Below, piece after piece: positions 22,801 through 59,086 of a stretch of DNA of 64,000 nucleotides. Every line of letters starts with the position of its first letter. Position 1 is the stretch's first letter. The DNA is taken from NCBI GenBank assembly GCA_964636085.1, contig CAZWPQ010000002.1, positions 26,401-90,400 of the forward strand, given 5' to 3'. This stretch comes from an uncultured Nitrososphaerota archaeon. GTDB taxonomy: Archaea > Asgardarchaeota > Njordarchaeia > Njordarchaeales > Panguiarchaeaceae. The position numbers and the translations under genes are program-made. A model generated the notes under the pieces. The model had not been told where the DNA came from. It saw only the letters and a program-made list of their open reading frames with translations, and ran no database searches.

Positions 22801-24037
22801 AACAATAACAATCACAAATACCGACGTAACGCCCTTTGCAGATCCAGATGGAACAGTCATTGCGAATTCCTACGTCTCTGTGGAGTATTCGACAATACTT
22901 GCAGCAACGTTATATGAATCCACACTTCATCTAAACGTAGTGAATGTCATTGACGCCAATGTAGAGGGTATTGTATTGTCCGAGGGATCCGTGCTGGATG
23001 GGGATAGTGTGAATGCATCAAATATACTAGCAGCCTACATGTTCAAGTATTACTTCATGATATTTACGATGGTCTCCACATACGATATCCCGGTAAGAAA
23101 TATAGATGTTCATCTCGTAAACTCTAGGATAATGGAGGGATACATCAAATATTATGTGGTTGATAATCCACTCGGCGCTGAATTTGATAACGAAACAATA
23201 ATGGGTTCATATAGTACTTTAACAAACTACTCAAACTCATACACGACAGGCGCGGTACCATATTTCGTTTTCAGAATCTCTGGGAGTGGACATGCCAACA
23301 TAACTAATTACAGGGGAGGAAATATAATACACTCCATAATGATCATGGCTACCCGGGACATTTCGCCGCCAGAAATAGCTGCACTTAATGCCAGTACGAT
23401 AGAATATGAGTATGGGCTAGAGAGGAAGTTGTGCTATGTGCTGAATGACGAGACGCCAACGAATTATAAGGTCTCTATCAATGATACAATCATCGAAACC
23501 GGCATATATACAAGTGGATATACGCTATGTGTGGACCTTGCCACATACATAACTTCTCCTGGTTATTATGTCGTTAAAGTATATGCCTATGATAGTGACC
23601 TAAATAGTGTATATACAACAACTTATGTTCGTGTACATCCCGCAGAGGCACCACTTATAACACTGGAGCCTAAGGATAATTACACGATTAATGTAGGTGA
23701 AGGAATAATACTTAACTGGTCGGCGACAGATCTTTCCCCCGATTTATATCAAATTATTGTCAATGGATCAAAGGTGGAGGAAAAATCTTGGGCGTCTGGC
23801 GAGGTAATATCGTATGAATATCAGGCAGAAGATGTTGGGAAGGTCAATATAACCATAGTATTCCAAGACCAGCTAGGGCTAAAGTCTACAGATACTGTAA
23901 TTCTAAATGTCACCAAGGCAACAACCACAAAGAAACCTATAACTTATATTGCCATAGGTGCCATAGCTTTTCTTGCTTTGGTAGTCGCCATAATATTACT
24001 AAAGAGGAAAGGAAAACCTATGAAGGAGGAGGAATAG
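19859..24037 (+). CDS. Membrane-anchored surface protein with a long beta-helix-like region and C-terminal Ig-like domains
   Basis: Signal-like N-terminus (probable start ATG 19910), recurrent I.(A/L)YD.S.V.I.NS units, many N-x-S/T sequons, C-terminal TM plus KRKGK. Confidence 0.8.
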   Translation: MTTKALILGAFRSQEDSMVKSLRKYNQYLCSLIIVAMLATYGVYGSVMRIANDANSRTTTAHGSSANNMGIMEHKLVIGYDATFRNCIINGTVEIRNGSRVMFENVTFYAESLYYWVEGREKGFIEVYDTAEVMIKNSRIIATSWSPRIYVYNTSGITIDNVSIYSTMGGINIYAYGDSSVNIYDCNASTTLYIFLRDYAAAIVINSSIWQILAYDNSGVYLYESINNTYIETHDSSLLYVFGAKMGYGDYISAGDNSHVEIINTVFSSGGIACDGHASVQATQSVLDYIVAEDAANVSLVNTNVSNLWAYDHADLHISGGYFNWIDLYHVPMAGEEAMLGPGGEIKDATITTLHTSSARIIRLINCYVSSLYYLDIFNGSYAYVYVGGYIYDSAYPNYEALGSTIVNTYHISGVAVGNNVDLFVIHRPMNQIVAFNVDRLEIYNITDTGSVIALYTNCYIYNISVYDVEFAFYGSNVTINNLTYKTSGFYFSFLARDSNITIYDSNIEYMDISIYDSKVSFRSVLINNSYLLIENSSGTLDCIMDSTIPDLSDSDIVFNNSVISSTLHIYRSKVGLINTTLYDVIIDEVRLADGVFNMTDGVIISYTVDIISGLYEIEPSNIYSGYISIDYFVLDNASLEIDTYTINVIMGGYVDIDLYNSSKLYLINVSAVYPREVCINVYNDSAIYLFDSDVYTIYAEGDVYIENTGVNQIDIHNSDIEIFHSQISELEMDSSRLVANYTNFSEIEIMSGEVMLDSCYVDDMGGGDLFAFMLNGTICDANITILNSNVSGYHALLGGNLTIKNSNVSEIFAAYQWVDIYDSNIGFALNVSLFTSGSATISNNVITSGTYMVLLHKYGTTVIGSMGYAISILQDPDEPLVDLSIENTFAYPVVVALGGRLDIDNSMFMIVFVNTDTDFRATNSIINASEMEEVPVILVASTLYMDNVTIISEMLILAASNDAQILNSGFNVDGIYIYNTTITITNTDVTPFADPDGTVIANSYVSVEYSTILAATLYESTLHLNVVNVIDANVEGIVLSEGSVLDGDSVNASNILAAYMFKYYFMIFTMVSTYDIPVRNIDVHLVNSRIMEGYIKYYVVDNPLGAEFDNETIMGSYSTLTNYSNSYTTGAVPYFVFRISGSGHANITNYRGGNIIHSIMIMATRDISPPEIAALNASTIEYEYGLERKLCYVLNDETPTNYKVSINDTIIETGIYTSGYTLCVDLATYITSPGYYVVKVYAYDSDLNSVYTTTYVRVHPAEAPLITLEPKDNYTINVGEGIILNWSATDLSPDLYQIIVNGSKVEEKSWASGEVISYEYQAEDVGKVNITIVFQDQLGLKSTDTVILNVTKATTTKKPITYIAIGAIAFLALVVAIILLKRKGKPMKEEE

Positions 24038-26179: not shown

Positions 26180-29100
26180 TTGGTAAGGGGGAAGCTGGCC
26201 TGTCTATTATTAATATTGGCGATTTTGACGCCCAGACTAGTCGTTTTTAACGATTTTGATGGGGTTTCTAGTGTTGAGTCTAAAGGAACAGAGGACGATT
26301 TTGTTGACATATGTTTGTTCTACAGCGAGTATAATTCTCTACTTGGGAGATCATCCGAGAGACTGTACTTCAATATAAGGTACATATATCCACATGTTGA
26401 CTTGTGTGGTGTGCGTAGTATTTATGATATAACGCTGAAAGCCGATGATTACGACATACTTATCTTGATGTTCAATACTACACGGGACTCCGTTATCGTA
26501 GGTAATACACCACTATCATGGGGCGAATTTGTGGATTTTCTACGCATGTATCCTGATAAGGAAATCATACTCTTACTGGGCAACTCCTACATGCTGAATG
26601 AGACAAGCGATAATTGGCATTTTGAAAGCGTAGAATATGATAGTATCTATGCATATGAGACCTATGGCGTCTGGAAGGTTGCCAAGATATTCGAATCCCT
26701 AGGCCCAGAATATAAATGGTACGCATTAAAGTTGAAGGAGAGCGCGCTCAGCTATTACTTCGATAACATAGACAGAATATTCGAATCAAAAATTACGCCA
26801 TCACAAGTAATTGGAAGCAGGGATGAGGAGTATAGAAAGGCAAAAATAGAGGAATACCTAAGAGAACATCCCTCCTCCCTTAGGGTCAGGGTAGCCGATG
26901 AGAAAAACCCCAATGGCCCAATAATATACATTAGAAATTTTGCTAAGAATTCAGATGGATATGACTACTTACCATTCCCCAAGATGTCCGGGATTGCAAG
27001 TTCTATCGGGGATTTCATTGACGAGGTGCTGGGCTTCTTATCTGGCAATGGTTGTGATTTTCTAACAATAAATTTCTCGGTGATAGATCAAATCGTAGAT
27101 GCATTTAAATCCGTATATGATTTTATTGGCGACCCCGCAAAAATGGGGGAGGGATCGCTGCTCAAGGGGTTCCTAGGCTCGCTGATGCAAGAGTTTCCAT
27201 ACATTGAGAACTATACAAAATACTTGGATCTTTTTATGGACGGCTTCTATGCCCTCAAGGGCGACATAAGTTCCATACTGGACTTCCTAATGGGGGCCAT
27301 CGATCTAGTCTTTCCTTCGGGAACGGGAGTGGATGAGTATATAGAGCAATTAAAATCCATAGCGGGGGAGATATTATCCATAACTGACCAAGTAATGAAT
27401 CTTTACCAGAGAATCACCAGCAACAAAATTAGCATGGTTCTCCAGTATATAATGGGGAAAATCACCAATATTACGATCCAAGAATTCCTAAAAAACATGA
27501 CTGGAATAACAGATTTTGACTCGCTATATAACAGATTGAGCTCACTGTTCTCCATTGGCATGCAGATATTTACACTCCAAAACATAACAGATTTCGCCTC
27601 AAAATTGTTCAAATTTATAACGGAGGACTTGAATATCTTTGATTATCCCGACATTGGCGACATAGCAGGAAAAATAAAGTCTATAATATCCCTAGCATTA
27701 TCGTTTCTAGAGAAAGAAAAATCATCTCTATCGCAACTACTGAGGGACGCCATAACCTCATTCATAGGCGAGTCATATATATCGGACATAGAGAAAATGG
27801 TTGATGATATACTGGATGAAGTTGATGATGCCATAAAAGAGGCAGAATCTGATATAGAGGGCTTTAGGTCACGCATAGAGGACATCATAAACACTTATGT
27901 CTCTAATTTCCCCGATCTGGAAGAGGTAAGAGAGATACTAAGAGAAGTAATAACACTGATAACTGCGATCTCAAACCCCGGATTTGATATCTCAGAGGCT
28001 ACTAGCCTCATAGAAATATTTGAGGATATACTAGAGACCTATCTTTCTGGATATGAGGATGATATCAATCGTTTATTCTTAATATTGAACTCCACTGTAA
28101 TCCCAATAGGGCTTCTAAATGCTCCATCAAGACTACAGAAGGCATTTCTAAAACAATTAAACCCATTATTGGACATGCGGCAAAATGTCCTAAGATACCT
28201 AATAGAAACGGTAAAGAGAATAATAATGGATACGGAGGAGTACGTTCAGATAGAAGATGTGCTGAAGTACATAGAGAATGGAACAACAATAATCAGCGCA
28301 ATACTTAACATAATCTCGGAGGTTAGGGAGAGACCATTCGATGGGATAACGTCGGCCCTAATGTTTGCTGCGTCCATCACACAGACCCAGTTATTTGGCA
28401 ATATGACTATAGGAAATCTGACGACATTTCTAATGGCATTATTACCGGATCTAATGGGGCTAGATAGGGTACCATCTTTGGAGGAATGTAAGAATATGAT
28501 AATCAATGCTCTAAGTGGATTTAGTTCTCAAATAAAAACCACGGTTATTACGCTATTCGAGTTCCTGTATGACATTAGAGAGGTTATGAGGAATGGAGTA
28601 AAATGGTTTACAACAAAGATACTCGATTGGGTGGCTGGATATGTAGCGGACTTTGTTTCAGATCTTGTTGGGGAGATAGAGGATATAATAGACCAGTATA
28701 CGTTTCTTAATCTAGAGGGAGATATGAATTTTGGTTTTGCTGGGCTTGATGCTATTACATTTTCATACAAGATAGTTATAAGCGCTGGGGTCGACATTGA
28801 TGAGTCTGGACTAACTAATGATATTAAGGACATGATATTGAGGGGTAAGTATTTAGACTTCTTGAACCCGATAAAGGTTTTCGAAACGTTGATAGGCCAT
28901 GTAACAATAACGCCCATAATAGAGGCACAGATAAAGATGTCATCGATGGCTACGAATACAGATCTTCTAGGCGAAATTATAGGTCTTCTAGGAGCGGATA
29001 TAAGTATAGAAGGAGAGGCCAGATTTAAACTGGTATTGTTCTCATTCAAATCTGGTACCTTCGATATGAGCGAATTCCTAGACTTGAAGGAGTGGTATCT

Positions 29101-32100
29101 AATGTTCTCAATGTCCATATCAAAGACATTTTCAATATTTGACATAATCGGGGCGCCAGAATTGGCATCGGTAGCTGAGGATCTGGGTCTGGACCTGATA
29201 ACTGTTACTCTTACAATTGGATTCAAACTAGAAATAAACCTTGGATCTGAGAGTGAGGATAGTGGGGCACATTCCATATTGTCGCTAGAGATTACCGTGG
29301 CTGGAACACTCCACATAGGTATCGATGTAGTGATAGCTGAGGTCTCCATAGACTTCACACTATCTATATCCTTCACATTTACCATAGACACGTCAAAGCC
29401 AGACCCATTACTATTTGAGATATCAGTGAAATACAAACTCAAGATACATGCAGAATTCCTATTTGTAGGAAAGACATGGAAATTTGGTGGCACTATATTC
29501 ACATATCAATTCCCAGAGAACGAGTCGGATACCCCAGATAAGCATGCAGGAGGATTTGATGAGGATGCTGACGGCCTCCCAGATAACTTCGAGAAAGAAA
29601 ACTTTGGATTCTCACCCACAAGAGCAGACACAGATGAAGACGGTCTAGGCGATAATGAAGAGTTAAATGCGTATGGCACAGATCCACTGGATCCAGATAC
29701 TGATGGGGATGGATTGACAGACTATGATGAGATAAAGGTATATGACACTAATCCATTCATAAGAGACACTGATAATGATGGCCTGACGGATTATGAGGAA
29801 ACCATAATATATGCTACGGATCCCCACGAGGTGGATACCGATGGGGATGGATTAGATGACTATTTTGAAGTACACTATACATGGGACATTAGTAATGTGA
29901 CTATAAGCATTTCTGGAGTATCGATTGGTGGAGAAATATACTATGATCACACAGATCCTCTGAATCCTGATACTGATGGCGATGGGCTTCTTGATGGCCA
30001 AGAAGGGCCTCTAGGTGGCTATTATCTCCCATTTGCGTACGATTTTGGCGAAAACCCAATAATATTTAATTATGGCTATACGCATCCATTAGACAATGAT
30101 ACTGATGATGATTCATACATGCAGGAACCCGATGGATCTATTAGGGAGCCAAAATATTTCTTAAGATCTATGACCGATAAAGAAGAGATAGATGGCATTA
30201 CAGTAGTCTATATAGATCCCGAAGAGGGGCCGGTGCTAAGAACATTTAGGACAAATCCGATATGTCCAGACTCTGACCAAGACACTGGCAGTTCTACAAT
30301 ACTGTTGAGTGATGGATACGAGTTATCCCGAAATCCACCCTCAAATCCATTAAACGGAGATAGTGATGGCGATGGGATTATAGATGGTAATGAAGGTACG
30401 TCATCACCATATTCAAATAAGACAGATCGTCTAAACCCAGATACAGATGGAGATGGTCTTGGGGATATGCAGGAAATAGTTTTGGGTCTTGATCCAGGTG
30501 AGCCTGATACTGATGGTGATATGGTGTCCGATGGGGATGAGTTTATTAAATATGGCACGAACCCAAGGCTTTTTGATAGTGATAATGATAGACTTAGTGA
30601 CGGTGAGGAATTATTCTATTGGCACTCTAACCCAATGTTAAAAGATAGTGATAATGATGGTATAATAGATGGTGATGAGGTACTCATATACTTTACAGAC
30701 CCCATGGACGAGGATTCAGACAACGACAATCTTACAGATCCGATGGAGATATTTGTATACCATACAAATCCATTGGAGGCCGACAGTGATTATGATGGTC
30801 TTGTTGATGGAGACGAGATTTTCCTATACAATACAAGTCCACTGAACTGGGATAGTGATGGTGACTCCATACTATATCCAAACGAGACGGGAGATATAAC
30901 ATGGCCCATGAGTGATTATAGAGAAATATTCGTCTTTGGCACAGACCCACTAGACTCTGACACGGATAATGATGGCTTATCAGATGCGATAGAGACATAC
31001 TTGGCTAGCGGGAAAATACCCAACTTTGAACCAATAATGCTTGATGCAAATAATAACGATACTGATGGCGATGGGCTGATCGATGGCCATGAAATCCATA
31101 TTAGGAATATAAGCGATATCGTCTATCCCTACGTGAGCTTTATCATATATTATCCACTCAATTCATCGCCACTCCTAGTAGATACCGATGGTGACGGTCT
31201 CACTGACTATAGAGAAATAATGATATATGCAAGCAAAGCAAACTGTAATGATAGTGATGGTGATGGTCTCAGTGATTATGATGAGGTGGTCATCTATAAT
31301 ACCAGTCCAATATACTGGGACACAGATAAGGATAATATATCTGACTATGACGAGGTTAATGGTTTTGTTGCGTCGCTTGGCTATAAATTCCCAGATTTAA
31401 TGACGGTGTTCTATACAGATCCTGCTGATCCAGACACTGATGATGACTACTTGCCGGATGGATATGAGGCACAAGTACTCAGATCAAACCCCACAATAAA
31501 GGACGAGGATAATAATGGAATTGAAGATGGATTGGACTTTGATACAGATGGCGACATGTTGAGTGACGGATTGGAATTCTATGTATACAATACCTCATAC
31601 TATCCTGGTGGTGGTCCATTAAATCCTGATTCGGATCAGGACGGGCTTAGCGATGGATCAGAAGTATATGTCTATGGTACTGATCCAGCTGATCCCGATA
31701 CAGATGATGATGGTATATTGGATGGGGCCGAGGTAGCGGCTGGGACAGATCCACTATCATTTACATCGTGGGAAGAATATGTTGATGCTCTCAACATTTT
31801 GCTTGGGGGTAACTATATAAAGATACTGAGTCCTAGAGGCACCATTATTGATAAGTATACGAATGTTAGGGTGATTAACGGTACTACATTCACTGAGATG
31901 TGGTTTAGATATAAAAAGATTGGGGACGACTTTTCGAGTAATTACTCACTGGTCTATGATCCAGATTCGCTTCAATGGGTATATAGCGACATTGTCTGGG
32001 AAGAAGGAAACTATACCATAGAGGTATTTGGAAGAACTCCTGGAGGAGAAGTATTTAAAGCAACTGAGGAGTTCGGGTTCATCTCGGTCGAGAAGAAGAT

Positions 32101-32257
32101 ATCAGAAACCAAATTGAAGTGGCTCCTCATAGGTATAGGTGTAGGCGTAGCCATAGTTATTTTTGCGATATTTGGCTTGCCTCGGATCCTCAAAAAACTA
32201 AAGGAGAAGAGGCAGGCTACAACAAAGATAAATGAGGGAGGTGAGGAGAGTGCATAG
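26180..32257 (+). CDS. Giant surface protein: helical region, beta-rich region, many TSP3-like Ca-binding repeats, C-terminal TM
   Basis: Signal peptide; more than 20 DTDxDGLxDxxE...TxP repeats; TM WLLIGIGVGVAIVIFAIFGL followed by basic residues. Confidence 0.85.
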   Translation: MVRGKLACLLLILAILTPRLVVFNDFDGVSSVESKGTEDDFVDICLFYSEYNSLLGRSSERLYFNIRYIYPHVDLCGVRSIYDITLKADDYDILILMFNTTRDSVIVGNTPLSWGEFVDFLRMYPDKEIILLLGNSYMLNETSDNWHFESVEYDSIYAYETYGVWKVAKIFESLGPEYKWYALKLKESALSYYFDNIDRIFESKITPSQVIGSRDEEYRKAKIEEYLREHPSSLRVRVADEKNPNGPIIYIRNFAKNSDGYDYLPFPKMSGIASSIGDFIDEVLGFLSGNGCDFLTINFSVIDQIVDAFKSVYDFIGDPAKMGEGSLLKGFLGSLMQEFPYIENYTKYLDLFMDGFYALKGDISSILDFLMGAIDLVFPSGTGVDEYIEQLKSIAGEILSITDQVMNLYQRITSNKISMVLQYIMGKITNITIQEFLKNMTGITDFDSLYNRLSSLFSIGMQIFTLQNITDFASKLFKFITEDLNIFDYPDIGDIAGKIKSIISLALSFLEKEKSSLSQLLRDAITSFIGESYISDIEKMVDDILDEVDDAIKEAESDIEGFRSRIEDIINTYVSNFPDLEEVREILREVITLITAISNPGFDISEATSLIEIFEDILETYLSGYEDDINRLFLILNSTVIPIGLLNAPSRLQKAFLKQLNPLLDMRQNVLRYLIETVKRIIMDTEEYVQIEDVLKYIENGTTIISAILNIISEVRERPFDGITSALMFAASITQTQLFGNMTIGNLTTFLMALLPDLMGLDRVPSLEECKNMIINALSGFSSQIKTTVITLFEFLYDIREVMRNGVKWFTTKILDWVAGYVADFVSDLVGEIEDIIDQYTFLNLEGDMNFGFAGLDAITFSYKIVISAGVDIDESGLTNDIKDMILRGKYLDFLNPIKVFETLIGHVTITPIIEAQIKMSSMATNTDLLGEIIGLLGADISIEGEARFKLVLFSFKSGTFDMSEFLDLKEWYLMFSMSISKTFSIFDIIGAPELASVAEDLGLDLITVTLTIGFKLEINLGSESEDSGAHSILSLEITVAGTLHIGIDVVIAEVSIDFTLSISFTFTIDTSKPDPLLFEISVKYKLKIHAEFLFVGKTWKFGGTIFTYQFPENESDTPDKHAGGFDEDADGLPDNFEKENFGFSPTRADTDEDGLGDNEELNAYGTDPLDPDTDGDGLTDYDEIKVYDTNPFIRDTDNDGLTDYEETIIYATDPHEVDTDGDGLDDYFEVHYTWDISNVTISISGVSIGGEIYYDHTDPLNPDTDGDGLLDGQEGPLGGYYLPFAYDFGENPIIFNYGYTHPLDNDTDDDSYMQEPDGSIREPKYFLRSMTDKEEIDGITVVYIDPEEGPVLRTFRTNPICPDSDQDTGSSTILLSDGYELSRNPPSNPLNGDSDGDGIIDGNEGTSSPYSNKTDRLNPDTDGDGLGDMQEIVLGLDPGEPDTDGDMVSDGDEFIKYGTNPRLFDSDNDRLSDGEELFYWHSNPMLKDSDNDGIIDGDEVLIYFTDPMDEDSDNDNLTDPMEIFVYHTNPLEADSDYDGLVDGDEIFLYNTSPLNWDSDGDSILYPNETGDITWPMSDYREIFVFGTDPLDSDTDNDGLSDAIETYLASGKIPNFEPIMLDANNNDTDGDGLIDGHEIHIRNISDIVYPYVSFIIYYPLNSSPLLVDTDGDGLTDYREIMIYASKANCNDSDGDGLSDYDEVVIYNTSPIYWDTDKDNISDYDEVNGFVASLGYKFPDLMTVFYTDPADPDTDDDYLPDGYEAQVLRSNPTIKDEDNNGIEDGLDFDTDGDMLSDGLEFYVYNTSYYPGGGPLNPDSDQDGLSDGSEVYVYGTDPADPDTDDDGILDGAEVAAGTDPLSFTSWEEYVDALNILLGGNYIKILSPRGTIIDKYTNVRVINGTTFTEMWFRYKKIGDDFSSNYSLVYDPDSLQWVYSDIVWEEGNYTIEVFGRTPGGEVFKATEEFGFISVEKKISETKLKWLLIGIGVGVAIVIFAIFGLPRILKKLKEKRQATTKINEGGEESA

Positions 32258-35200
32258 GAGAAAGATATTAGCTCTACTTGTGATAATCGGCATGATAGCC
32301 CCTATATTCGTTGTCCTAAATACCAACCAGAGTACATACGATGTAGGAGAAAATAAGGGCTTTGAGACAAGTAGCAGTCAACATATGGATTTCAACGATC
32401 TCTTTAGTGAAAAATCAATAAGCTACTCGTGGAGCGGGAACTATTATCCAGAGAATTGGAGCTTCATCAAGTATCTAAAGGACAATCCTAATGAATATAG
32501 GAAAGTTTGGGAGCCATGGCTAACTAAGGCAGCCATACATTCCATAGTAACGAATGATAATGGTACAATGATTGCTTTTGGTGGCGGATACCTATACGAT
32601 AATGAGATACATATTTATCGATGGAACTATGTTACGCAGAACTACGAGAAGGTCTGGGATTCAGGGGATGGGATTATATCGGGTGATGTTGTATCCCTAG
32701 ATTTCGCGGATACGGATAACAATAGGCTGATGGAAGTAGTAGCGGGGAGTGCTGACGGGCATATATACGTGTTTGAGCAGAGACACGTTTTCGATCCCAT
32801 AACAAACACGGAGCATATGTTTGATTTGGTCTGGAAAAGTGAATTTCTCGGCCCTGTTTGGAGAGTAATGGTGTATGACATGGATCTGGATTATGATCCA
32901 GACATTGTTGCTGGAACATGGAACAATAAGATATACATGTTCGAGTATGAGGATCATTCGGGATATCCATATTCCACTTCACATTGGATATCATATAAGA
33001 TGGTTTGGGAGAGCCCAGAATTGAGTGATAAGATACTATCTTTTGTCTGTGGAGATATAAATGGGAATGGTCTTCCAGATATGTTGGTGGGCCTTAGAAA
33101 TGGAGAGCTTGTATTATTCGAGAACAACGGCACCATAATACAGGCACCAGACTACTATCTGCCCCTACCACAGGACAACAGCTACAAGATCATTTGGTCA
33201 TATAACTATGGTAGCTATGCACCAATTCTTGATATGTCTATAGGCGACCTAGATGGTGATGGAATAGATGAGGTATCAATTATAGAATCTGGTAGAGAGG
33301 CCTATGTGCTAGATTACTCCGAAACATACGATAGATTCGACCTAATAAAGCTCTACTATCCCCCTAAATCGTTCGAACTAGATCCCCCGCACCCCATAGA
33401 CTACTATATAGACTGGATGATAAGTGGTATAAATGTATACTATAACAATAGCACAGCATACATTGCAGAGCCAAGCGAAGAAATCGACATCTATGACAAT
33501 AATACTGCGATGGGAGGACCCCCAGATGGTAAATACTCAGAATTCTTGCCAAACGCGACTCATAATGCTACTGCAGTATTGGACTTTGGAATGCAGGAAG
33601 AGGCTGCTGGTGATGGGACATATTATTTTGATATATGTATGGTGTTGATGTATAAGCAGGGATATGACCTCGTACCCAACAGAACATCGATGAGGATATA
33701 TGTATCTAAGTATGGCTACAAGTATGTCGAAGTGAAGGATTACTTTGTATATGACTTTGGCTCAGTGGCCTACCTATTCTTCGACATTGATGGAATCCTG
33801 AAGAATAATTCGTGGAAACACATTCGCTACCTGAAGATCGTTGTTCCCTATGGATATAAGTTTGCAATAGATGCCATTATAACATATGATATCGATAAGC
33901 AATTATCGGATGTGACCTCTACATATATAACGGAGCTGGATCTTGACTATTATGGTGAAAAGAACTATCTCCTGTTTGGGACCGTAAATGGTAGGCTTGT
34001 CATTTTCCAGTACAACGACACAATCCATAGATATGAGATGGTGTATGATTCCTTATCCGAGGACATGTTTAGCCTTGAGAATAACATATGGGACATCGTA
34101 AAGGTCATGCCAGATAAAAGGTTCCCGTACTGGACGAAATACTGGGAGAAAGGTATAGACTTGGGCACGAAGAAAATGATTGACTTTGAGTATTTTGATA
34201 TAGATCATGACGATAATTACGATTTGCTCATCGGAACGGATAAAGGCACAGTTTTGCTCTATAGGTATCAGTGGGGCACTTTTATTAATGATAGCTATGC
34301 CACTAGCAAGATATTTGGGGATATAAATGGAGTATCCAAGTCTAACCTCACGCTAAGGATGTGCGATATTTTGAATAATAAGCCAAATAAGCCTGGCATA
34401 GAGCTTATTCTTGGATATTATAAGGATGTACAGTATAACCTTAGGATATTTTATCTGTATAACCCAGCCGTGCTTACATATAGTTTCGAATATACTTATG
34501 ATGTGGCAGAACACGAGATAACTGGGAAATTATATAGCCTATTCCACTATTCTGGAGTCCGTAGCCCCGTCACTTTTGATGTGGCGGACGTTGATGGAAA
34601 TGGTTATAAGGATATTGTGCTTGCCTTCGGCGGGAAGCTATATATGCTATGGTACCTATATGGAGATGCGAGCGGCCCAGTATTTATGTTGGATGAGAAG
34701 TACTTCGAGGATATTCCAAATCTTCTAAAGAATAAGAAGCCATTCAAACCCCAGCTGGTAGACTTTAACAATGATGGTGTCTACGATTTGGTTATTAGCT
34801 ATCTAAATAAGAATGGAACAACATATTTCGAGAACATAGGCACAGTAGATGAGCCAATATGGGTGCAAAAGAGGACATTGTTCGCAAACTCGCTGCGGTC
34901 GTTAAACCCTGTAACAAACTTTGCCTTCAATGGATATACATTATCAGAAATAGAGAAAATAGGGGATACCTATTGGCTCATAGCCAACAAGCGGGGAACA
35001 TCCACATTTATTCTCTTCAATGGAGAAACAGATAGAATACAGACATTGGCACTGGCCACGTATCCACTCCTAACCGTTATAAACATGGCTCCAGTCGTCC
35101 CAAAGGCCTCAGAGAACTTTGGATACCATATATTTGAGGTATGGTCCAATCATAGGGATCTGCATGGATGGACCCAGGCAGTCGACTATGGAGATGTCGA

Positions 35201-38200
35201 TTCTGATGGTAAAGGAGAAGTAATAGTGGGAGATTTCGACAATAATGTATATATATTTGAACACATGATAAATAATACGTATAAGAGAGCGTTTAGAAGT
35301 GGAGATTTGTACTATGAAATAGTTACGAATACAAGTCCATATTATTCCGAAGAACTCGTCGGCCTACAGGGCACATTCAAGAGGAGAATCTGGGAACATG
35401 CAAGATATTTGGTTGCCAATACAGATATAGATGGGGATGCAAAACTGGAGGCCATCGTTGCCACTAAATACCAGATCTTCGTCTTTGAGCATGAGCGCTA
35501 TGAGAACTACATCTTGGAATATAGGTATTCATTCTTGGAGCATCCTCTGGGATCCGAAATACTTGAACAGACAAATGGTATATCTGCATTCGCCTATGCG
35601 GGCGACATGGACTATAATGGCTATGGCGAGATAATCGTTGCACTAGACAATTATCTATTCGTATTGGAGATGACCGAGGATGGGTTCATCGAGACTTTTA
35701 GTTCTCTTGTCAGCATATTTGCCGATAAGATTATAGATTATGCTGCCACTCATAAATATTATCTCTTAGACCCGGTTTTTGTCTTGCCAGGAAACCCATA
35801 TACATATTACTACGATTTAATGGGACAAGGAGTGAATGACTACTCCGAATTTGAAATAAGGGCTATAATAATTGTTGATTTGGACAATAATGGGAACAAA
35901 GAAATAATTATTGGTGGACTAAACAGATCGCTGGAGTGTCCATCACTAAGGGACGGCTTCTTATACGCCATCGAGAATGAGTTCGGTACATATTATATAA
36001 GGTGGAGTGCTCCAGATAATGTGTTGTATGAAAATGCAATAAATGCCCTCGATGTAGATGACCAGGACTACGATGGCAAAAAAGAGCTCTATGTTGCAGG
36101 GGATAAAGGAGTAGATGTGTTTGAGGCGTCCGATACTAGTTATCTTGAATATATAACCACGATAAGTGGCGATCCAAATCATCCATTCGTTAATAACATG
36201 GCATTATATAACAACTCTCCACTAGCCTATGATGACGAAAAGTTCGATGATGCCGATATCGTTGTTACTCCACAGGGACGAATATTTGTAATCTATCAGT
36301 CAGAGTATACAATAACGGCTACAAAAACCACAGAGATTTTCTATAGTTATAGTGACGATGGTGGCAAAACATGGTATGGTCCATACATATTGGCTCCAAC
36401 GACCGATTATAGTGGTACCCCACTCTTTGAGAAATTCCCAAGGGCACTATATCATAATGGCTCCATATACATTGCTTGGTATGCAAGCATAGATGTTAGT
36501 GGGATAGTCCAATATAACATATGCTATAGAACGCTAGACCCACAAACACTAGTTAAGGGCCCCATTGAATACCCAGTAAAAAGCATGAGTGACGTAATAT
36601 CCGACCTCAGCATATGGAGATTTCCTGTGAAATTCTGGTATGTATCCTATGATATGGGGATAAGCTACATAAACTATACTGATAGGTGTATATATCCCAT
36701 GTTCCGCCTACTGGGTAGCTGGTACCCGCTTGTATCCAAAAAAATAGAGTATATCTACGATGGAAATTGGACATTATTCTTTAGGCACGATATAGCATAT
36801 ATCGGCGCCTACAGATGGCTCATCGCATTTACGATGTATATCCCAGATCAATACGGCCGTAGACTTATTTGGACCTCAATAACCGATACGTCCTTTTCCT
36901 CATGGACAATGCCCGTGACGATCTATGATTCGTATGAGCTTCAGGAATATCCAAATGTGGAGTATATAGAGAGCGAAAACGTTACAGTGGTTAGTGGCAT
37001 GAGGTATACTGTATCTCATTACTGGGAACCATTCCTATGTGTATCCATGAATGGTGGGCAGACATGGTCAAAGCCAAAGTATCTATATAGATATCATCCA
37101 AGGGTAAAAATAGTATGCTCGAATGGAGTGCCCAGATATCAGTTTTTAACTAGGACATATGAAGATCTAGGAATGCATAGGACATATGCTCTTAGGGTAA
37201 GTGCACGAAATGGCTACTTTGTCTACTCGATGCCGGCGATGATAACGTATAATCCGCTTGGCACTATAGGCACAGTTTATGATATAATAGTTGGTGTGCG
37301 GGATAGCTATGAATGGCTTAGATTCGATGTATCAAAAGTCGATGTGTTGGCTGTAGGGGATACGGATGGCGATTGGCGGAGAGAAGTAATTGTGAACATG
37401 GATGACTACGTTGTTGTTGTGGAGATAAGTGATAATAATGAGTCCTATAGGAGATATACTCAGAAAGCCATCTTGGGGCCATTTAATAGGACTATACAGG
37501 ATATTGTAGTGGGTGATGCCAATGGGAATGGTTGGGACGAAATAATCATAGCGACGGATTATGGCAATGTATACTCCTATGAGTTCCTATACTCCACATG
37601 GCTAGGTTCGGACTTTAGAGTGCCTAATGAGGAGTTCTCCAAGAAATATCTTATATCTGCCTCACTAATATCCTTTTATGGGCTAGGAAATATTGACAAT
37701 GATCCACAACCAGAATATTACTTCACGACAATGTATGGGCTATATGTATATGATCACATATGGGAGAATTTCTCACACATGCTCTTCTATCCCGCAAAGA
37801 TCAACTATACTGTTGCATTCAATCCCTTAGGCGAGGATAAGATCGATTTTATCCTGGCGCTCAACAATGGTACTGTATATAGGATTGATGGCGAAACTTT
37901 CTCCGTTGTTGCCGAGAAAGATATTGCAACTGATGGTTTCGTAGACATAATCCTAACGAACACAACTGTGTTCCTAGCGAACAAGTCTGGATTTGTTATA
38001 GAACTCACTCTAGATTCGTTATCAGAGGTATTTACGTATAATCTCGACGCTGTTAATACTACCGGTATAGGAATAGGATACTATCTTGGCGGTATCTCAA
38101 GGATATTTATACAACTGGATAATGATACGTTGTATTGTATAGATTATCAGAGTGCTTCCCTAGCGTGGACTATCCATGTATCTCCAAATATCGAGGGAAG

Positions 38201-39938
38201 TGTTTTCACATTTGATATAAATTCTGATGGCCTAGACGAGCTAATAGCATGCAACTATACCAACGGCATGTATGATTTAATGGTAATCGATATACTGAAT
38301 GGCTCCATTCTAAGTATTCTAGAGACAAAGTCAAGGTTCCAATATAGGTGGTATAGTATCGTGAATATCGATGGCGACGAGTTCCCGGACATATTCGCAT
38401 ATACAGAGATGGGCGAAATTGTGATCTCCACTAAAAACTTCGACGTTATATGGATGGATGAGTTCAGGTACTACAAAGAGTTCTATGAATTTGTTGACTA
38501 TGATGGAGATGGAAGAACAGAAATATTGTACTCGTTTAATGGAGGCACAATACTATCCAATTCCTATGGATGCCCCATACTATACTATGGAATCCCCAAC
38601 AACAGGACATTCATGACGCTGGGCGACATCGATATCGACGGAGAAATCGAATTAGTTGGGTATCTCGAAAACGGAGTATTTGTCGTTGTAAACATAACAC
38701 AGTTCAATGAATCATTAACCGGAGTCGCATACTTAGAACCAAAGATTGTTGGTGAGAAACAGATTGTTGATGAGATGGATTACGGCCTGATGGCTATAGC
38801 CGACATAAACAAGGATGATAACGATGATATCATTATATCAAACACAACCAATCTAATCGTGTATGACTTCTATATGGGTGACTATGTATTTAAGACAGAT
38901 CTAAGGATGCAGATACGTGAGATCCTTACAGGCGACATGCTTGGCTACGGGTATAACTCCACAATCGTTGTATATGGGGACTACGACGTCACTATCTTCG
39001 ACAATACGGGGCAAATAATAGTGGATATGCGTGTTGTTAGTGGTAAAAACTATATAGTGAGGGCGTTTATAGGAAATTTCATGGGATCCGCGAAGGATGA
39101 GGTCATCGTAGTAACAACACTAGGTACATACTGTATTGATGAGTCGGGCATATACTATCTATTAACAATAGGCTCAAATACATATCCAATTGTTGGGGAC
39201 TTTAATGGGAATGGCTACCTAGACATAGCATATAAGATGTTGGGAACATCGACCCTATATGTGTATGAGGGAGACGGAACATTTATGTGGAGCAAAACAC
39301 TGAGCACTAGTTCTGGAAATATGTTTGCATGCGATGTATTCACTCTAGATATAAACAAGGACGGCATAGATGATATAATATTCACAGACTTCAATGGTAC
39401 TATAGCAATATATGATGGCTCCTCTGGAACAGCCATCTATAAGATACCCACAGGTATACACTCGTACGCCCTATCGGTGGATATCGACAGAATGTTTGGT
39501 ACTGGTGGCCTAGTAGTCAAATATCTAAACTATGGTCTCTATGTATTTAAGCTAGATGGATCAATGGTCTATCACTTCCCCGATATGTCAACCTCAGGAT
39601 ATATTCCGGCTTATGTATCTGGAATAGGATACACCTACTTCGCTATGACCCCAGGGAAAATATTTGGAGTAAACCGCTACGACAGATACATCTATAAATC
39701 TCTTAGCTACGAAACTGTAGCATTCAACCGAATGGTAATGGCCAATGAAATATATATAGTATCCCTCGCAAAAACTGGCTACGTAACAATCATAAACATA
39801 GCCGATCTCTCATCCAATCCCATAAGACCTAGCACTCTCTCCAATGGTCACAGCGATAATTGGAATGGAGCAACCCTACTATTGATAACGGCAATTCCAC
39901 CAATTGCCGTGGCTATATACGTGAAGAAGAAAGAATAA
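32232..39938 (+). CDS. Giant FG-GAP/VCBS-repeat beta-propeller surface protein with Asp-box motifs and C-terminal TM
   Basis: Many GDxDxDGxxE(I/V)(I/V) repeats, SDDGGKTW and SMNGGQTWS Asp-boxes, signal peptide, C-terminal hydrophobic segment plus KKKE; overlaps the upstream gene. Confidence 0.87.
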   Translation: MREVRRVHRRKILALLVIIGMIAPIFVVLNTNQSTYDVGENKGFETSSSQHMDFNDLFSEKSISYSWSGNYYPENWSFIKYLKDNPNEYRKVWEPWLTKAAIHSIVTNDNGTMIAFGGGYLYDNEIHIYRWNYVTQNYEKVWDSGDGIISGDVVSLDFADTDNNRLMEVVAGSADGHIYVFEQRHVFDPITNTEHMFDLVWKSEFLGPVWRVMVYDMDLDYDPDIVAGTWNNKIYMFEYEDHSGYPYSTSHWISYKMVWESPELSDKILSFVCGDINGNGLPDMLVGLRNGELVLFENNGTIIQAPDYYLPLPQDNSYKIIWSYNYGSYAPILDMSIGDLDGDGIDEVSIIESGREAYVLDYSETYDRFDLIKLYYPPKSFELDPPHPIDYYIDWMISGINVYYNNSTAYIAEPSEEIDIYDNNTAMGGPPDGKYSEFLPNATHNATAVLDFGMQEEAAGDGTYYFDICMVLMYKQGYDLVPNRTSMRIYVSKYGYKYVEVKDYFVYDFGSVAYLFFDIDGILKNNSWKHIRYLKIVVPYGYKFAIDAIITYDIDKQLSDVTSTYITELDLDYYGEKNYLLFGTVNGRLVIFQYNDTIHRYEMVYDSLSEDMFSLENNIWDIVKVMPDKRFPYWTKYWEKGIDLGTKKMIDFEYFDIDHDDNYDLLIGTDKGTVLLYRYQWGTFINDSYATSKIFGDINGVSKSNLTLRMCDILNNKPNKPGIELILGYYKDVQYNLRIFYLYNPAVLTYSFEYTYDVAEHEITGKLYSLFHYSGVRSPVTFDVADVDGNGYKDIVLAFGGKLYMLWYLYGDASGPVFMLDEKYFEDIPNLLKNKKPFKPQLVDFNNDGVYDLVISYLNKNGTTYFENIGTVDEPIWVQKRTLFANSLRSLNPVTNFAFNGYTLSEIEKIGDTYWLIANKRGTSTFILFNGETDRIQTLALATYPLLTVINMAPVVPKASENFGYHIFEVWSNHRDLHGWTQAVDYGDVDSDGKGEVIVGDFDNNVYIFEHMINNTYKRAFRSGDLYYEIVTNTSPYYSEELVGLQGTFKRRIWEHARYLVANTDIDGDAKLEAIVATKYQIFVFEHERYENYILEYRYSFLEHPLGSEILEQTNGISAFAYAGDMDYNGYGEIIVALDNYLFVLEMTEDGFIETFSSLVSIFADKIIDYAATHKYYLLDPVFVLPGNPYTYYYDLMGQGVNDYSEFEIRAIIIVDLDNNGNKEIIIGGLNRSLECPSLRDGFLYAIENEFGTYYIRWSAPDNVLYENAINALDVDDQDYDGKKELYVAGDKGVDVFEASDTSYLEYITTISGDPNHPFVNNMALYNNSPLAYDDEKFDDADIVVTPQGRIFVIYQSEYTITATKTTEIFYSYSDDGGKTWYGPYILAPTTDYSGTPLFEKFPRALYHNGSIYIAWYASIDVSGIVQYNICYRTLDPQTLVKGPIEYPVKSMSDVISDLSIWRFPVKFWYVSYDMGISYINYTDRCIYPMFRLLGSWYPLVSKKIEYIYDGNWTLFFRHDIAYIGAYRWLIAFTMYIPDQYGRRLIWTSITDTSFSSWTMPVTIYDSYELQEYPNVEYIESENVTVVSGMRYTVSHYWEPFLCVSMNGGQTWSKPKYLYRYHPRVKIVCSNGVPRYQFLTRTYEDLGMHRTYALRVSARNGYFVYSMPAMITYNPLGTIGTVYDIIVGVRDSYEWLRFDVSKVDVLAVGDTDGDWRREVIVNMDDYVVVVEISDNNESYRRYTQKAILGPFNRTIQDIVVGDANGNGWDEIIIATDYGNVYSYEFLYSTWLGSDFRVPNEEFSKKYLISASLISFYGLGNIDNDPQPEYYFTTMYGLYVYDHIWENFSHMLFYPAKINYTVAFNPLGEDKIDFILALNNGTVYRIDGETFSVVAEKDIATDGFVDIILTNTTVFLANKSGFVIELTLDSLSEVFTYNLDAVNTTGIGIGYYLGGISRIFIQLDNDTLYCIDYQSASLAWTIHVSPNIEGSVFTFDINSDGLDELIACNYTNGMYDLMVIDILNGSILSILETKSRFQYRWYSIVNIDGDEFPDIFAYTEMGEIVISTKNFDVIWMDEFRYYKEFYEFVDYDGDGRTEILYSFNGGTILSNSYGCPILYYGIPNNRTFMTLGDIDIDGEIELVGYLENGVFVVVNITQFNESLTGVAYLEPKIVGEKQIVDEMDYGLMAIADINKDDNDDIIISNTTNLIVYDFYMGDYVFKTDLRMQIREILTGDMLGYGYNSTIVVYGDYDVTIFDNTGQIIVDMRVVSGKNYIVRAFIGNFMGSAKDEVIVVTTLGTYCIDESGIYYLLTIGSNTYPIVGDFNGNGYLDIAYKMLGTSTLYVYEGDGTFMWSKTLSTSSGNMFACDVFTLDINKDGIDDIIFTDFNGTIAIYDGSSGTAIYKIPTGIHSYALSVDIDRMFGTGGLVVKYLNYGLYVFKLDGSMVYHFPDMSTSGYIPAYVSGIGYTYFAMTPGKIFGVNRYDRYIYKSLSYETVAFNRMVMANEIYIVSLAKTGYVTIINIADLSSNPIRPSTLSNGHSDNWNGATLLLITAIPPIAVAIYVKKKE

Positions 39939-46117: not shown

Positions 46118-46396
46118 TCCACTGCTAAATACGAATCTATGGCCTACATTCGAACTCGCTTGGGGAAAACTGGCGCCCAATGTAAATAATCTCCGCCCAT
46201 ATAGTTGACATCAACTTAAAAATAAATGCAGATACAACACAAAGACAAAAGGAATTCTATCTTGGTGTATTGTTCAGGATTGTAGCTTTGTCTTTATAGG
46301 TTATCTTAATATTTCAAAAGTTTGTTACTTTTCGTGCTGATGGGATTTTATCTTTACTTCTCTGGCAGTCTAAATCATCAAATTCATTCCCTTAAT

Positions 46397-46505
46397 TTTG
46401 TTTTTTCTTGTGCTCCTAGATGAGTGGTTTTTATGCTTTCTATCAACCCATTGTAGCTATTTAGATGCTATCAAAATGTCCTATATATACCGTATTGCAC
46501 CCTAT
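46397..46505 (+). repeat. Degenerate ~110-bp dispersed repeat, copy 2
   Basis: TTTGTTTTTTCTTGTGCTCCTAGATGAGTGG...CCATTGT...ATACCGTATTGCA aligns with 39961-40069. Confidence 0.75.
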
Positions 46506-46685
46506 GAAAAATAAAGAGTCTACACAACACTCCCCATCTTGAGCGCGCTTTAAAGATTTTCTAAATTAATACAATAATATATAAATACTATAACAGATAA
46601 CTATATCTATATAATATATACAATATTTGCAATAAATTTTTTAAAATGAATACAAATATGTATTATCAAATACAAATTTATTACG

Positions 46686-49600
46686 GTGGTATATTTGCGA
46701 AAAGTATTTAGGCAAATACCTTTAAAGCACTCCGCCCCAGTCCTCGCAACCATAGCTCTCCTTCTAATAACACCACAAATACTACAAAACACACCACCAA
46801 CAGCAAAGGCAAACGTAACACCACAAATAGCAGACATAGGACAAGTAATAATATTCGACGCCAGAGAATCTCACGGAATGATAGTAGATTATGAATGGAT
46901 ATTCCACGATGGGACTATAAAACATGGAGCAGTGGTACAGCACGCATTTCAGAAACCAGGAATATATTACGTAACGCTAATAGTAACAGCAGACAACGGA
47001 CTAACAGACCTAACGACAGTAAAAGTAGTGGTGAGAAATGATCCACCAAAGGCAAAGATCACCGCAAACACAATAGCATACGAGGGCGAAGAAATAACAT
47101 TCGACGCAACGCAAACACTAGACAGCGACATCGACCTACCAAACCTAAAATACTACTGGGACCTTGGGGATGGGTACGTGGCTGAGGGAAAGATCGTTAG
47201 CTACATATATAGGGTCTCTGGAACATACACAGTCACACTCAGAGTCGAGGACGACCAAGGATTCATAGACACAGAGACTATATATGTTACCATCCTAAAC
47301 AAGCCACCAGAAGCAAACGCTGAGGCCAACAAAGTTGTTGTCTATGAGGGTGAAGAAATACATTTCTATGGATATGCTGTGGACACAGAATATGAGAATC
47401 TAACATACCTATGGGACTTTGGGGAAGGAACATATGCATTCACCAAGGATGCAACACATACATACTGGGTCTCAGGGGTATACACCGTTGAGTTCATGGT
47501 TAGGGACGAGGAGGGAGAAATATCAAGCGACACAATAACGGTAGAAGTCATAAACAAGCCACCAACAGTGAGCATAAAGCAGAAGAATATTGTCGTAGAA
47601 GAGGGGAGGACAATAATAGTGGAGGCGGATATAGAGGACACACCAACAGACATCCCACTAATAACATACGAGTGGAGCAATGGGGCTGGAGGATGGAGAA
47701 GACCATACATATGGCCAGACGACTGGAGCGGAGAAATATGGGTAAGGGCAACAGACGATGACGGAGCAATAAGCACGGATAGGGCAACAGTCCGAGTGGT
47801 GAATGTGGATCCAGAAGCATCAATAATAGATTGCTACGCAATAGCAAACATAACATTTAGGGTTGCTGGGGCACCAAACGCAACGATAGAGGTGAGATTA
47901 TTAAGAGACAACAGGACAATAATGGAGGCAAACATAACGAGGATACATTCCGAACCAGAAAATATAAGCCTAATGATAAATGGTAAGCTAGACCTAACAT
48001 CAACATGGATAGTCGAGGCAAGATACATACAGAACTACCCGCCATGTGGAAGCAACCCAGCATGGGTAATAATGGAGTTTAGCAACGGTGCATGGAGAAA
48101 AATACACCATGTATTCAATCCAGAACACAACGAGACATACGAGTGGAGGGTCATCCTGAACGACTACATAATAAAACCGTTCCCAGAGATCCATGAGTAT
48201 GATTGCGGATACTACTGTGGCTATGACCTAGAACATTATGGCGACCCGGAAATATACTTCGTAGGGAAGGGTTTTGATAGAGGAATGGACAACCTAACAT
48301 TCCTATGGTACGTCAACAATACCCCCGCGGTGATGGAGGAGTATGAGGCCACAGAATACCCAATGCTTGCAGAGTCAACATTCTCCTGGGAGATTGGATA
48401 TCCAACAAACATAAGCCTAAGAGTCGTGGACGATGATGGAGGACACTCAAAAACATGCATGGTCAGGATACTGAAACAGAACACAACAATGATGATCGAG
48501 GGAATGGCGGGGAGAATAGAGATCGTGAACTATACGGATAATGTCGAGGAATACGGAATATTTTACGCAACGACAAATGCGACTGAGAACACAACAATAG
48601 TATGGATGCTTGATGGAGACACACTATACGGCCCAAGTATAACATATGTATGGAATGAGTCTGGAACATACATAGTGAGGATATACAGGAACATATCTGG
48701 GGAATTAGCATTCCTAGACGCGGTCAAGGTAGAGGTATATAACGTACCACCAGAAATACTGGAGCCAAGAGATGTTGTGCTTGATGAGGGAGCACCAATA
48801 AACTTCGCACTATCCGCAATTGACACGCCAAACGACAAACAAAAACTAAGGATACTATGGATATTCCCACAGGGATATAGGGACGCAAACATAACTACAG
48901 ACTATATATTCTGGAGGTCTGGAACACACACAATAACACTATATGCTGTGGATGATGATGGTGCTGTAGCAACAATAAACGTGAGCATAGACGTTATGAA
49001 CAAACCCCCAACAGCAGAGAAGAAGGAGTATATGGCAACAATGGACAAATCAATAGTAATGACATGTGTCGCAAGCGACACACCATACGACAAATTCTAT
49101 CTGCAGTACAGGTGGGTTATAGGGGATGAGACAATAGTCGATGGGTACGATACAGTGTACACGTTTACAAAGCCAGGTGATATACAAGTAAAGGTATTCG
49201 TCACAGATGATGATGGAGACTCTGTGGAGACAAGCATAAATGTGACCGTGGAAAACCCGCCACCAATAATAAACATACTAGAAGAAATAATTTATTATGG
49301 CCCACATGTCCCAATACCAATAAACACAACAACAGTAGACACACCAGCACACGAAGGAGGAGTAACCGTGAAATGGACAGTATACTATGACGGACAAGCA
49401 CAATACCAAGACCATCAGACAAAAATATGGGTGAGGGCGACCGGACAATACGTGCTAGTAGTAACCGCGATAGATCCAGGTAGAGCAACAACACAGAAAA
49501 CACTAAGCTTGCAGGTAACATTGGATGATGATGGTGATGGACTTACAAATGAGCTAGAGGAGGAACTGCAAACAAATCCAAACGCTCCAGATACAGATGG

Positions 49601-58891: not shown

Positions 58892-59086
58892 GCAATGTTG
58901 ATGTCAAAAGAGGATAGGGATGTCCCATGATCTCGCATGTTTTATGATACAGGGGCATCAACATTGGCTGTTTAGATTTTTAGTCTACATGAATCCTTCT
59001 CTGCTCATAGCTTAGAATGAATATTTGTTTGCTTTATATTTTGTTTAACATATTATTCTATTGATTTGTTAGGATTATAAATTCTG

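Follow-up and report, generated by a model that had tools for sequence, protein, structure and literature searches.

The 64,000-nucleotide (nt) stretch analysed here (contig CAZWPQ010000002.1 of assembly GCA_964636085.1, hereafter the window) comes from an uncultured archaeon of the order Njordarchaeales and holds a polymorphic cassette locus, in which a long carrier protein ending in a metalloprotease domain (the tip) is followed by an array of stand-alone tips and membrane-anchored partner proteins. The locus is real and well supported and its composition is new, and the function proposed for it is tentative. The finding is carried by the architecture of the locus, the protease fold and catalytic residues of the tips, the co-variation of tip and partner, the switching of tips between positions, exchange between species and purifying selection. 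A first-pass annotation had described this arrangement, and its observation is confirmed and extended here: all seven elements that it listed, namely the carrier with tip1, partner A, the orphan tip2, partner B, a possible tip vestige, partner C and a tip stub, follow one another in that order at the places it gave them. Five long genes, all on the + strand, make up the array region. The source genome (G000) amounts to 2.4 Mb in 102 contigs and is 83% complete, and it stems from hydrothermal sediment; the metagenomes that contain the stretch are from hydrothermal vents, and no RNA run was listed among the data sets that contain it.

Carrier, protease tips and partner proteins

The carrier, which starts at 46695 in its database entry (1913 amino acids (aa); P0020 is the same protein), was found to contain PKD repeats (Pfam PKD_4, 4e-66) and TSP3_bac repeats, in keeping with the PKD/TSP3-like make-up ascribed to it earlier. 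Its N-terminal hydrophobic signal/anchor segment is consistent with Sec export. A membrane helix and a basic tail terminate all four of the remaining complete giant proteins of the window, whereas the carrier has no C-terminal membrane anchor. Comparison with the carrier P0017 gave a conserved body and a variable C-terminus, with identities of 76-89% over aa 200-1100, 32-39% over aa 1200-1500, 60% in the junction that precedes the tip and 21-35% in the tip itself, and the same pattern was obtained with the carrier of the congeneric genome G002. The PKD region is 76-89% identical to P0017 and 86% identical to G002:C140, and the TSP3 stalk is 60-84% identical to that of the G002 carrier. The comparison of related genomes that the first-pass annotation had proposed, to see whether the carrier stays the same while tip and partner change, gave a positive outcome: the congener has the same carrier, followed by five different tip and partner pairs. 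The carrier is not uniformly conserved, however: before the junction it has a second variable stretch at aa 1165-1500, which had gone unnoted by that annotation. An Atlas feature search with this pre-tip region gave no match reaching 0.9, and no known family could be recognised in it. In P0008 and P0010 the region goes along with the tip, and a role as pro-domain or adaptor is conceivable.

The claim that tip1 and tip2 share a near-identical junction and then diverge while keeping HExxH was borne out, the two cores being 28% identical and both bearing the motif. Tip1 (carrier aa ~1552-1916) and tip2 align end to end over the last 375 residues of the carrier at 31% identity (E 1e-50). The residues H, E and H of the motif and a Glu at +12 are invariant in 36/36 aligned tip-family sequences, and the Gly at +8 is not kept. 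An AlphaFold model of tip2 from this 36-sequence alignment reached a predicted local distance difference test score (pLDDT) of 80 and a predicted template-modelling score (pTM) of 0.85, and the alignment supersedes a model of tip1 made with 10 sequences (pLDDT 44, unusable). The best matches of the tip model among solved structures were ADAM-8, ADAMTS-5 and snake-venom metalloproteinases (Z 10-11.4, root-mean-square deviation (rmsd) ~3 A over ~157 residues), with ADAM-8 at Z 11.4 and rmsd 3.2 A over 157 residues, and the best Atlas matches were clusters of CLCA N-terminal proteases (template-modelling (TM) score 0.52-0.56, 208-213 residues aligned). Family models matched the tip below threshold, both Pfam CLCA (PF08434; E 2.2, 8.1 bits against a cutoff of 25.6) and peptidase M64 (PF09471; matches in 8/17 members, best E 1.2e-4). 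A PDB sequence search gave M64-type structures as the best, weak matches (3p1v, E 0.045). Fold and weak family matches together support a side remark of the earlier annotation on CLCA-type proteases, and its view of the tip as a plausible active metalloprotease is also upheld: given the fold model and the His, Glu, His and Glu that are invariant in 36/36 sequences, the tip domain (~310 residues) is very likely to be catalytically active.

A profile built from 17 tip cores matched 1141 proteins at a threshold of E <= 1e-3, and these were mostly large bacterial surface proteins with the motif HE.GHY.F...DEY. Among the 48 relatives that were scanned, type IX secretion system (T9SS) tails were present in 11/48 and TSP3 repeats in 10/48, and Pfam gave no protease family covering this domain in the proteins scanned. 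The zinc-protease domain, which is CLCA/ADAM-like by fold, is thus widespread in large surface proteins of bacteria (P0043-P0159, profile A3/A5), many of them T9SS cargo or equipped with dockerins.

Partners A, B and C had been described as divergent outer domains on a near-identical anchor, and as large, exported proteins anchored in the membrane. Both descriptions hold by sequence, as the proteins are 520-630 aa long and have a hydrophobic N-terminal segment and a C-terminal membrane helix, with outer domains that share 14-18% identity against 66-74% in stalk and anchor, and the last ~200 nt of the three genes are nearly identical. Across 12 partners the outer domains average 20% identity and the stalk and anchor average 72%. 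The outer domain of partner B matches FG-GAP_3 (E 5e-10, 40.3 bits, cutoff 26.9), and its Atlas language-model neighbours are all FG-GAP/VCBS propeller clusters (0.90-0.92); the Pfam scan gave no FG-GAP match for partners A and C. The shared anchor is not a part specific to the system: the module of TSP3 repeats and anchor gives 124 matches genome-wide and belongs to surface proteins throughout the genome, its copies at this locus having been homogenised. The anchors of partners A, B and C resemble one another more closely than any other copies do. Homogenisation goes by genome: the anchor of partner B resembles those of partners A and C and not that of its own ortholog, and the synonymous divergence (dS) of partner B is 0.96 in stalk and anchor versus 0.25 in the outer domain.

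Wherever the sequence downstream of a tip could be read, in each of the loci, the tip precedes an open reading frame (ORF) with a hydrophobic N-terminus. The downstream outer domain co-varies with the tip, the paired identities (tip %/outer domain %) being 88/88, 65/32, 49/35 and 51/22 against a background of ~33/17. Adjacent in every case and co-varying with its tip, the partner has a putative immunity role. A predicted complex of the partner B outer domain with the tip2 core scored 0.00, which gives no verdict and is evidence neither way. Each intact tip had further been said to overlap its partner gene. The stop of tip2 does overlap the GTG at 55094 by 22 nt and that of tip1 overlaps the ATG at 52430, but the likely start of partner A is the ATG at 52442 (GGTGA 5 nt upstream), 6 nt past the tip1 stop. 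Weak traces of the tip vestige proposed between partners B and C are present in the ~140-nt spacer, as 'DDSFFLDF' after the partner B stop and as a frame '..FPLECP..AYLWVSCVW*', the latter with a weak match to tip C-termini (E 0.06-0.08).

Exchange of cassettes within and between genomes

The junction of ~60 aa is 69% identical between tip1 and tip2 at the protein level, and at the DNA level 64/71 nt match (51423-51493 vs 54072-54142), after which identity drops to chance. Among tips whose cores share ~37%, the junction is 69-90% identical. Its first half (LPFWLEA.YT.TSPG..DTD) is intact in 5/5 carriers and is indel-broken or truncated in 9/13 cassettes, whereas its second half, SDAWEDSDGDGAFNIQELMIGKNP, is nearly invariant in carriers and cassettes alike, a distribution that fits crossovers in the second half.

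Relationships among the tips were determined with a maximum-likelihood tree of 18 tips and three outgroup sequences, leaving out exact G002/G004 duplicates, P0021 and the P0009 fragment. All 5 carrier-fused tips group among spare cassettes, with direct carrier-cassette pairings of tip1 with P0016 (100/100), of the G002 tip with P0022 (100/100) and of P0010 with c85_t4 (92/91). The carrier label changes five times on the tree, and at least four of these changes are forced by well-supported branches. By this tree, the C-terminal tips are diversified by presumed recombination with stand-alone cassettes. Among 5.8 billion database sequences, relatives were few, namely 11 near-length and 3 longer proteins. 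A search with the tip sequence against the other stretches of the same survey gave no match. P0016, a stand-alone cassette located between a partner anchor and a partner gene, is 58% identical to tip1 and shares its unusual HEFAHA.L.C.HE motif, and P0008 is a carrier end with a tip2-type tip (57% identity); these two have the same tip types as the window in the opposite positions. P0009 and P0010 (L040) are natural chimeras joined inside TSP3 repeats. In one, a partner propeller continues through such a repeat into the final third of a tip of the tip2 type, and the other combines a partner-like N-terminus with a carrier pre-tip region and a tip. The TSP3 repeats seem to act as recombination sites.

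Within the genus, tips were matched eight times in G002 and twice in G004. The contig of the G002 carrier overlaps a 14.5-kb metagenome contig at 99.7% identity, and the joined locus consists of a carrier with its tip, a partner and four more tip and partner pairs, all unlike those of the window, with genes that overlap or abut. A second G002 stretch (L037 joined to L030, 99.7%) contains a tip, a partner and then the orthologs of partner C, tip2 and partner B, so that, relative to G000, partner C and the tip2-partner B unit have traded places. The tip2 ortholog, which in G002 comes immediately after the partner C ortholog, starts with LRHDPSFWLEAHYTG. As the stub downstream of partner C in the window, LRHDFQFWLKTYYTK, matches this start, it is a relic of an older link. 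The partner C ortholog in G002 (L037) is also tip-less, and the tip start codon there is fused straight onto the partner signal segment.

Divergence from G002 differs along the locus. The cassette of tip2 and partner B has 88% DNA identity over 2.9 kb (G002:C35, window 53807-56738), and the 5' end of the carrier has 85% (G002:C140, window 46546-48121), as do the ~140 nt before the carrier start. In the flanks, the identity is 68% for an ATPase gene and 74% for partner C, 13 kb of other genes have almost no DNA match, and two flanking proteins are 53% and 71% identical. At the protein level, tip2 is 86% and the outer domain of partner B 88% identical to the G002:C35 orthologs, and dS is 0.25-0.47 in the cassette vs ~1.4 in partner C. 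As both dS and DNA divergence of the cassette lie below those of the flanks, the cassette must postdate the split of the two species; this points to an exchange between them and suggests that the module moves from species to species. The ratio of nonsynonymous to synonymous divergence (dN/dS) is 0.13-0.14 in tip2 and 0.13 in its core, 0.24 in the outer domain of partner B and 0.15 in partner C (dS ~1.4); these low values mark the orphan tip2, partner B and partner C as maintained genes and not decaying copies. The gene context upstream of the carrier differs between G000 and G002.

A 1307-aa protein of the complete genome CP003651.1 (L044 8001-16672), which we take to be that of Thermococcus sp. 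CL1, ends in a distant tip homologue with a recognisable junction. An exported 315-aa protein of another family overlaps this tip gene, and two further divergent tip-less paralogs follow. A vent contig has the same neighbourhood, and L041 combines a TSP3 carrier with the second partner family of the CP003651 type. Across these Thermococcus-type loci (L044, L051 and L041), the overlapping partner is exported and 315-395 aa long, and a radical-SAM gene lies upstream in two. They may form a second hypervariable module of Thermococcales, distinct from the VARTIG module discussed below.

The TSP3 and anchor repeats could have produced a chimeric contig. The links of the array were compared with Logan contigs. 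No independent contig bridges the partner A-tip2 or the partner B-spacer link, both of which cross 200-400-nt repeats, and one contig of a single run (X1, depth 68) passes straight from 53902 to 56729 and so lacks tip2 and partner B. Its joint lies in a 44-nt identical stretch (53858-53902 vs 56685-56729) and may reflect a deletion present in part of the population or a path through the assembly graph. The remaining links (tip1/partner A, tip2/partner B and spacer/partner C) are matched at 100% identity by independent contigs from two runs; moreover, the same grammar recurs in separate assemblies of other samples (L036, L037, L042 and L043), and the link of anchor, tip2 and partner B is reproduced in G002. 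An assembly artefact strikes us as extremely improbable.

Table 1. Features of the cassette locus and the region before it, in window coordinates
Feature	Position	Strand	Basis and remarks
AT-rich intergenic stretch, presumed promoter region	46119..46685	+	Read from sequence; no gene inside; promoter role presumed
Carrier gene, ends in tip1	46686..52436	+	ORF, 1916 aa from GTG 46686
PKD/Ig-like repeat region of carrier	46803..49475 (aa ~40-930, approximate)	+	Pfam PKD_4/PKD in 5 stretches
TSP3 calcium-binding repeat stalk of carrier	49503..50180 (aa ~940-1165)	+	TSP3_bac and CglD-like match, aa 944-1165
Variable pre-tip region of carrier	50181..51338 (aa ~1166-1551)	+	Identity to other carriers 15-45%
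Junction, candidate crossover site	51339..51512	+	Conserved block ..FWLEA.YT.TSPG..DTD.DG.SDAWEDSDGDG.FNIQEL.IGKNP
Tip1 protease core, HEFAH 51873-51887	51513..52436	+	Tip-core hidden Markov model, E 1e-98
Partner A	52430..53998	+	Hydrophobic N-terminus, variable outer domain, TSP3 stalk, C-terminal membrane helix and basic tail
Orphan tip2, 375 aa, HELAH 54546-54560	53988..55115	+	TTG start, GGTGA 6 nt upstream, no signal peptide
Partner B	55094..56818	+	FG-GAP propeller-like outer domain, TSP3 stalk, anchor
Spacer with probable deleted-tip remnant (first codons and tail)	56819..56985	+	Weak sequence match
Partner C, without a tip of its own	56959..58857	+	Likely start ATG 56986, GGTGA 5 nt upstream
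Tip stub	58847..58930	+	Junction start LRHDFQFWLKTYYTK, breaks off, stop

The window as a whole is an island of genes for giant surface proteins of 1392-2568 aa (5703-13097, 19859-24037, 26180-32257, 32232-39938 and 62260-64000). Just past the array lies a pair of small genes (59087-59335 and 59384-59710) that by eye resemble a DUF433-type antitoxin followed by a PIN-like toxin.

Proposed effector/protector function and its alternatives

The reading that we rank first, tentatively and somewhat short of calling it probable, is a polymorphic two-gene surface cassette system made up of a protease effector and its protector. A Sec-type exported protein with PKD repeats and a TSP3 stalk would display a CLCA/ADAM-like zinc endoprotease tip at its far end, and the gene directly downstream would encode a protein that is anchored in the membrane and has a variable, propeller-like outer domain changing in step with the tip. 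The unit of exchange would be the tip core together with the partner outer domain, placed between two conserved DNA blocks, the junction and the partner stalk/anchor. Homologous recombination at both blocks could shift units between the expressed carrier position and the downstream spares, and recombination at the same blocks could also move units between genomes. As a protease effector outside the cell, the tip would attack proteins on the surface of neighbours, the cognate partner would bind and neutralise its own tip on the producer surface, and the tip-less partners of the array would shield the cell from the tips of its neighbours. Secretion, binding, inhibition, the target and tip release are the parts of this scheme that we infer. 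The effector/protector assignment is favoured because a tip never occurs without a partner while a partner sometimes occurs alone, which is the pattern of toxin and immunity genes, and the same asymmetry argues against the partner as a mere dock for the tip. Tip-less partners persist under purifying selection, as seen in partner C and its G002 ortholog, and the Thermococcus tip homologue is followed by three divergent partner paralogs that lack tips.

Several observations weigh against an effector and its protector. The protease family is broad and, by the proteins matched, composed mostly of ordinary secreted proteases, and the domain alone would imply no weapon. The joining of tip2 to the carrier junction, which the first-pass annotation had envisaged, was not found among the contigs listed, and the carrier-cassette relatives are 57-58% identical, so the observed switches are old. 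The TTG of tip2 and the CTG of the stub are preceded by GGTGA, partners A and C have the same motif 5-6 nt before their starts, and an ATG stands at the conserved cassette start position in 8/11 cassettes. Such motifs and start codons may fit stand-alone expression of the spare tips and not silent spares, and if translated the spare tips would stay in the cytoplasm, as they have no signal peptide. The junction motif is conserved in the distant Thermococcus protein too, and the junction may serve structure or processing just as well as recombination. Besides, classical immunity proteins are small, whereas the partners have 520-630 aa and a receptor-like build.

The GGTGA motifs and start codons before the orphan tips, the ATG at the same position in 8/11 cassettes and the strong purifying selection on tip2 would also be expected of ordinary tandem paralogs, that is, duplicated tip and partner pairs that are expressed separately and have no functional exchange with the carrier. 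We nevertheless regard such paralogs as improbable, since the cassette tips have no signal peptide despite their extracellular-type calcium repeats, the same tip types are found both fused and free with at least four switches, degeneration of the junction's 5' part is confined to cassettes, and recombination chimeras (P0009 and P0010) exist. The partner might instead serve as the membrane dock or substrate-binding subunit of its own tip in a variable surface protease complex, where switching would alter the range of detrital-protein substrates or the surface targeted by viruses. This would account for the carrier being the only complete giant protein of the window without a C-terminal anchor and for the conserved hydrophobic tip end (Y.PL.GP..V..Y), and it suits a wider protease family that sits in ordinary secreted proteins and the two bacterial relatives that have FG-GAP repeats in the same polypeptide as the protease. 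The C-terminal motif, however, belongs to the domain in all distant relatives and so is no locus-specific docking tag, and a general fusion of FG-GAP to this protease was rejected, as FG-GAP is absent from the 25 families listed for the 48 relatives scanned. A dock that has lost its tip would moreover be expected to degenerate, whereas both partner C and its G002 ortholog, neither of which has a tip, are conserved (dN/dS 0.15) and Thermococcus keeps tip-less partner paralogs, and we hold the docking account to be unlikely.

Kin or self/non-self recognition, in which the tip is a ligand, the partner propeller a receptor on neighbours and polymorphism sets the groups while the protease serves processing or release, is likewise an unlikely account in our view. 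The topology of the partner is receptor-like (propeller, stalk, one membrane helix and short tail), tip and partner co-vary, extra tip-less partners would widen the range of recognised neighbours, and VARTIG, the nearest archaeal analogue, has been discussed in the same terms. The strict conservation of catalytic residues in all tips would nonetheless be needless for a pure ligand, and the rule that a tip never stands alone fits protection better. It is also conceivable, though we think it quite improbable, that an ADAM/CLCA-like head on a TSP3 stalk engages an integrin alpha-like receptor (FG-GAP propeller, stalk, one helix and short tail), with cassette exchange setting the recognition type. 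If true, this would be a polymorphic system of adhesion and self-recognition in the archaea most closely related to eukaryotes, built from domain types that serve cell contact in eukaryotes; the resemblance is an analogy and not a demonstrated homology.

Relation to known systems and significance

The layout had been likened to polymorphic toxin loci with orphan modules of the contact-dependent inhibition (CDI), Rhs and Maf type, and the likeness is sound as regards grammar, function aside. The polymorphic toxin systems CdiA-CT/CdiI, Rhs-CT/RhsI and MafB/MafI have orphan cassettes (Zhang et al. 2012, PMC3482391). Toxin heads of the zincin metallopeptidase kind are known in such systems. In common with these, the locus has a long exported protein whose body is conserved and whose C-terminal enzymatic domain varies, a conserved motif at the switch point, a co-varying gene directly downstream, further pairs of C-terminal module and partner together with partner-only genes, and tips that move between expressed and spare positions. 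Membership in CDI, Rhs or MafB systems was rejected, as Pfam and NCBIfam gave only PKD and TSP3 in the carrier and no CdiB, FHA, RHS/YD, PAAR, LXG/WXG or MafB-N. Unlike in those systems, the carrier here is built of PKD and TSP3 repeats, the junction motif is new, and the spares carry start codons. The head is a ~310-aa CLCA/ADAM-like protease in place of the small Tox-MPTase, and in place of small cytoplasmic immunity proteins there are exported, membrane-anchored, propeller-type partners.

VARTIG of Thermococcales comprises a large secreted surface protein, whose C-terminus is hypervariable via between-genome recombination, and downstream of it a set of variable proteins that are secreted or lie in the membrane (Makarova et al. 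2021, PMC8416519). Conflict or self/non-self roles were proposed for it, and its authors found no counterpart outside Thermococcales (PMC8416519). What varies in VARTIG is the Ig domain of an arCOG07710 protein, whereas here it is a protease, and the downstream genes differ; neither the word peptidase nor HExxH appears in the VARTIG paper (PMC8416519).

At the level of the domain, the tips share with CLCA (PF08434) and M64 (PF09471) an HExxH followed by an acidic residue ~12 positions on (HE.GHY.F...DEY), and with CLCA and ADAM a common fold by model (CLCA TM 0.52-0.56; ADAM-8/ADAMTS-5 Z ~11). Unlike in metzincins, the third His and the conserved Gly are absent from the tips, and unlike in CLCA the domain stands at the extreme C-terminus and not the N-terminus and comes without a von Willebrand factor A (VWA) domain. 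Secreted proteases with an adjacent inhibitor gene that shields the producer are familiar from AprA with AprI/Inh and from staphopain with staphostatin; those inhibitors are small, and their loci are not known to be polymorphic or to include spare cassettes. By analogy with AprA/AprI, the protease gene here is directly followed by a gene for a candidate specific shielding protein.

No description of this composition was found in the literature searched, a 2019 survey of archaeal polymorphic toxins being outside that coverage, and the same literature describes no polymorphic surface system in Asgard archaea. Archaeal conflict and recognition systems are largely predicted and almost never tested. 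The locus offers a testable pair in the protease core and the partner outer domain, cognate versus non-cognate, and the homologous Thermococcus locus is a possible route to genetics in a cultivable archaeon. The analysis also defines a widespread zinc-protease domain that is not covered by Pfam models in the proteins scanned. In this Asgard lineage, the cassette logic of bacterial toxin and immunity loci appears to be applied to an extracellular protease and a large surface-anchored partner, a combination that implies action at the cell envelope and not in the cytoplasm.

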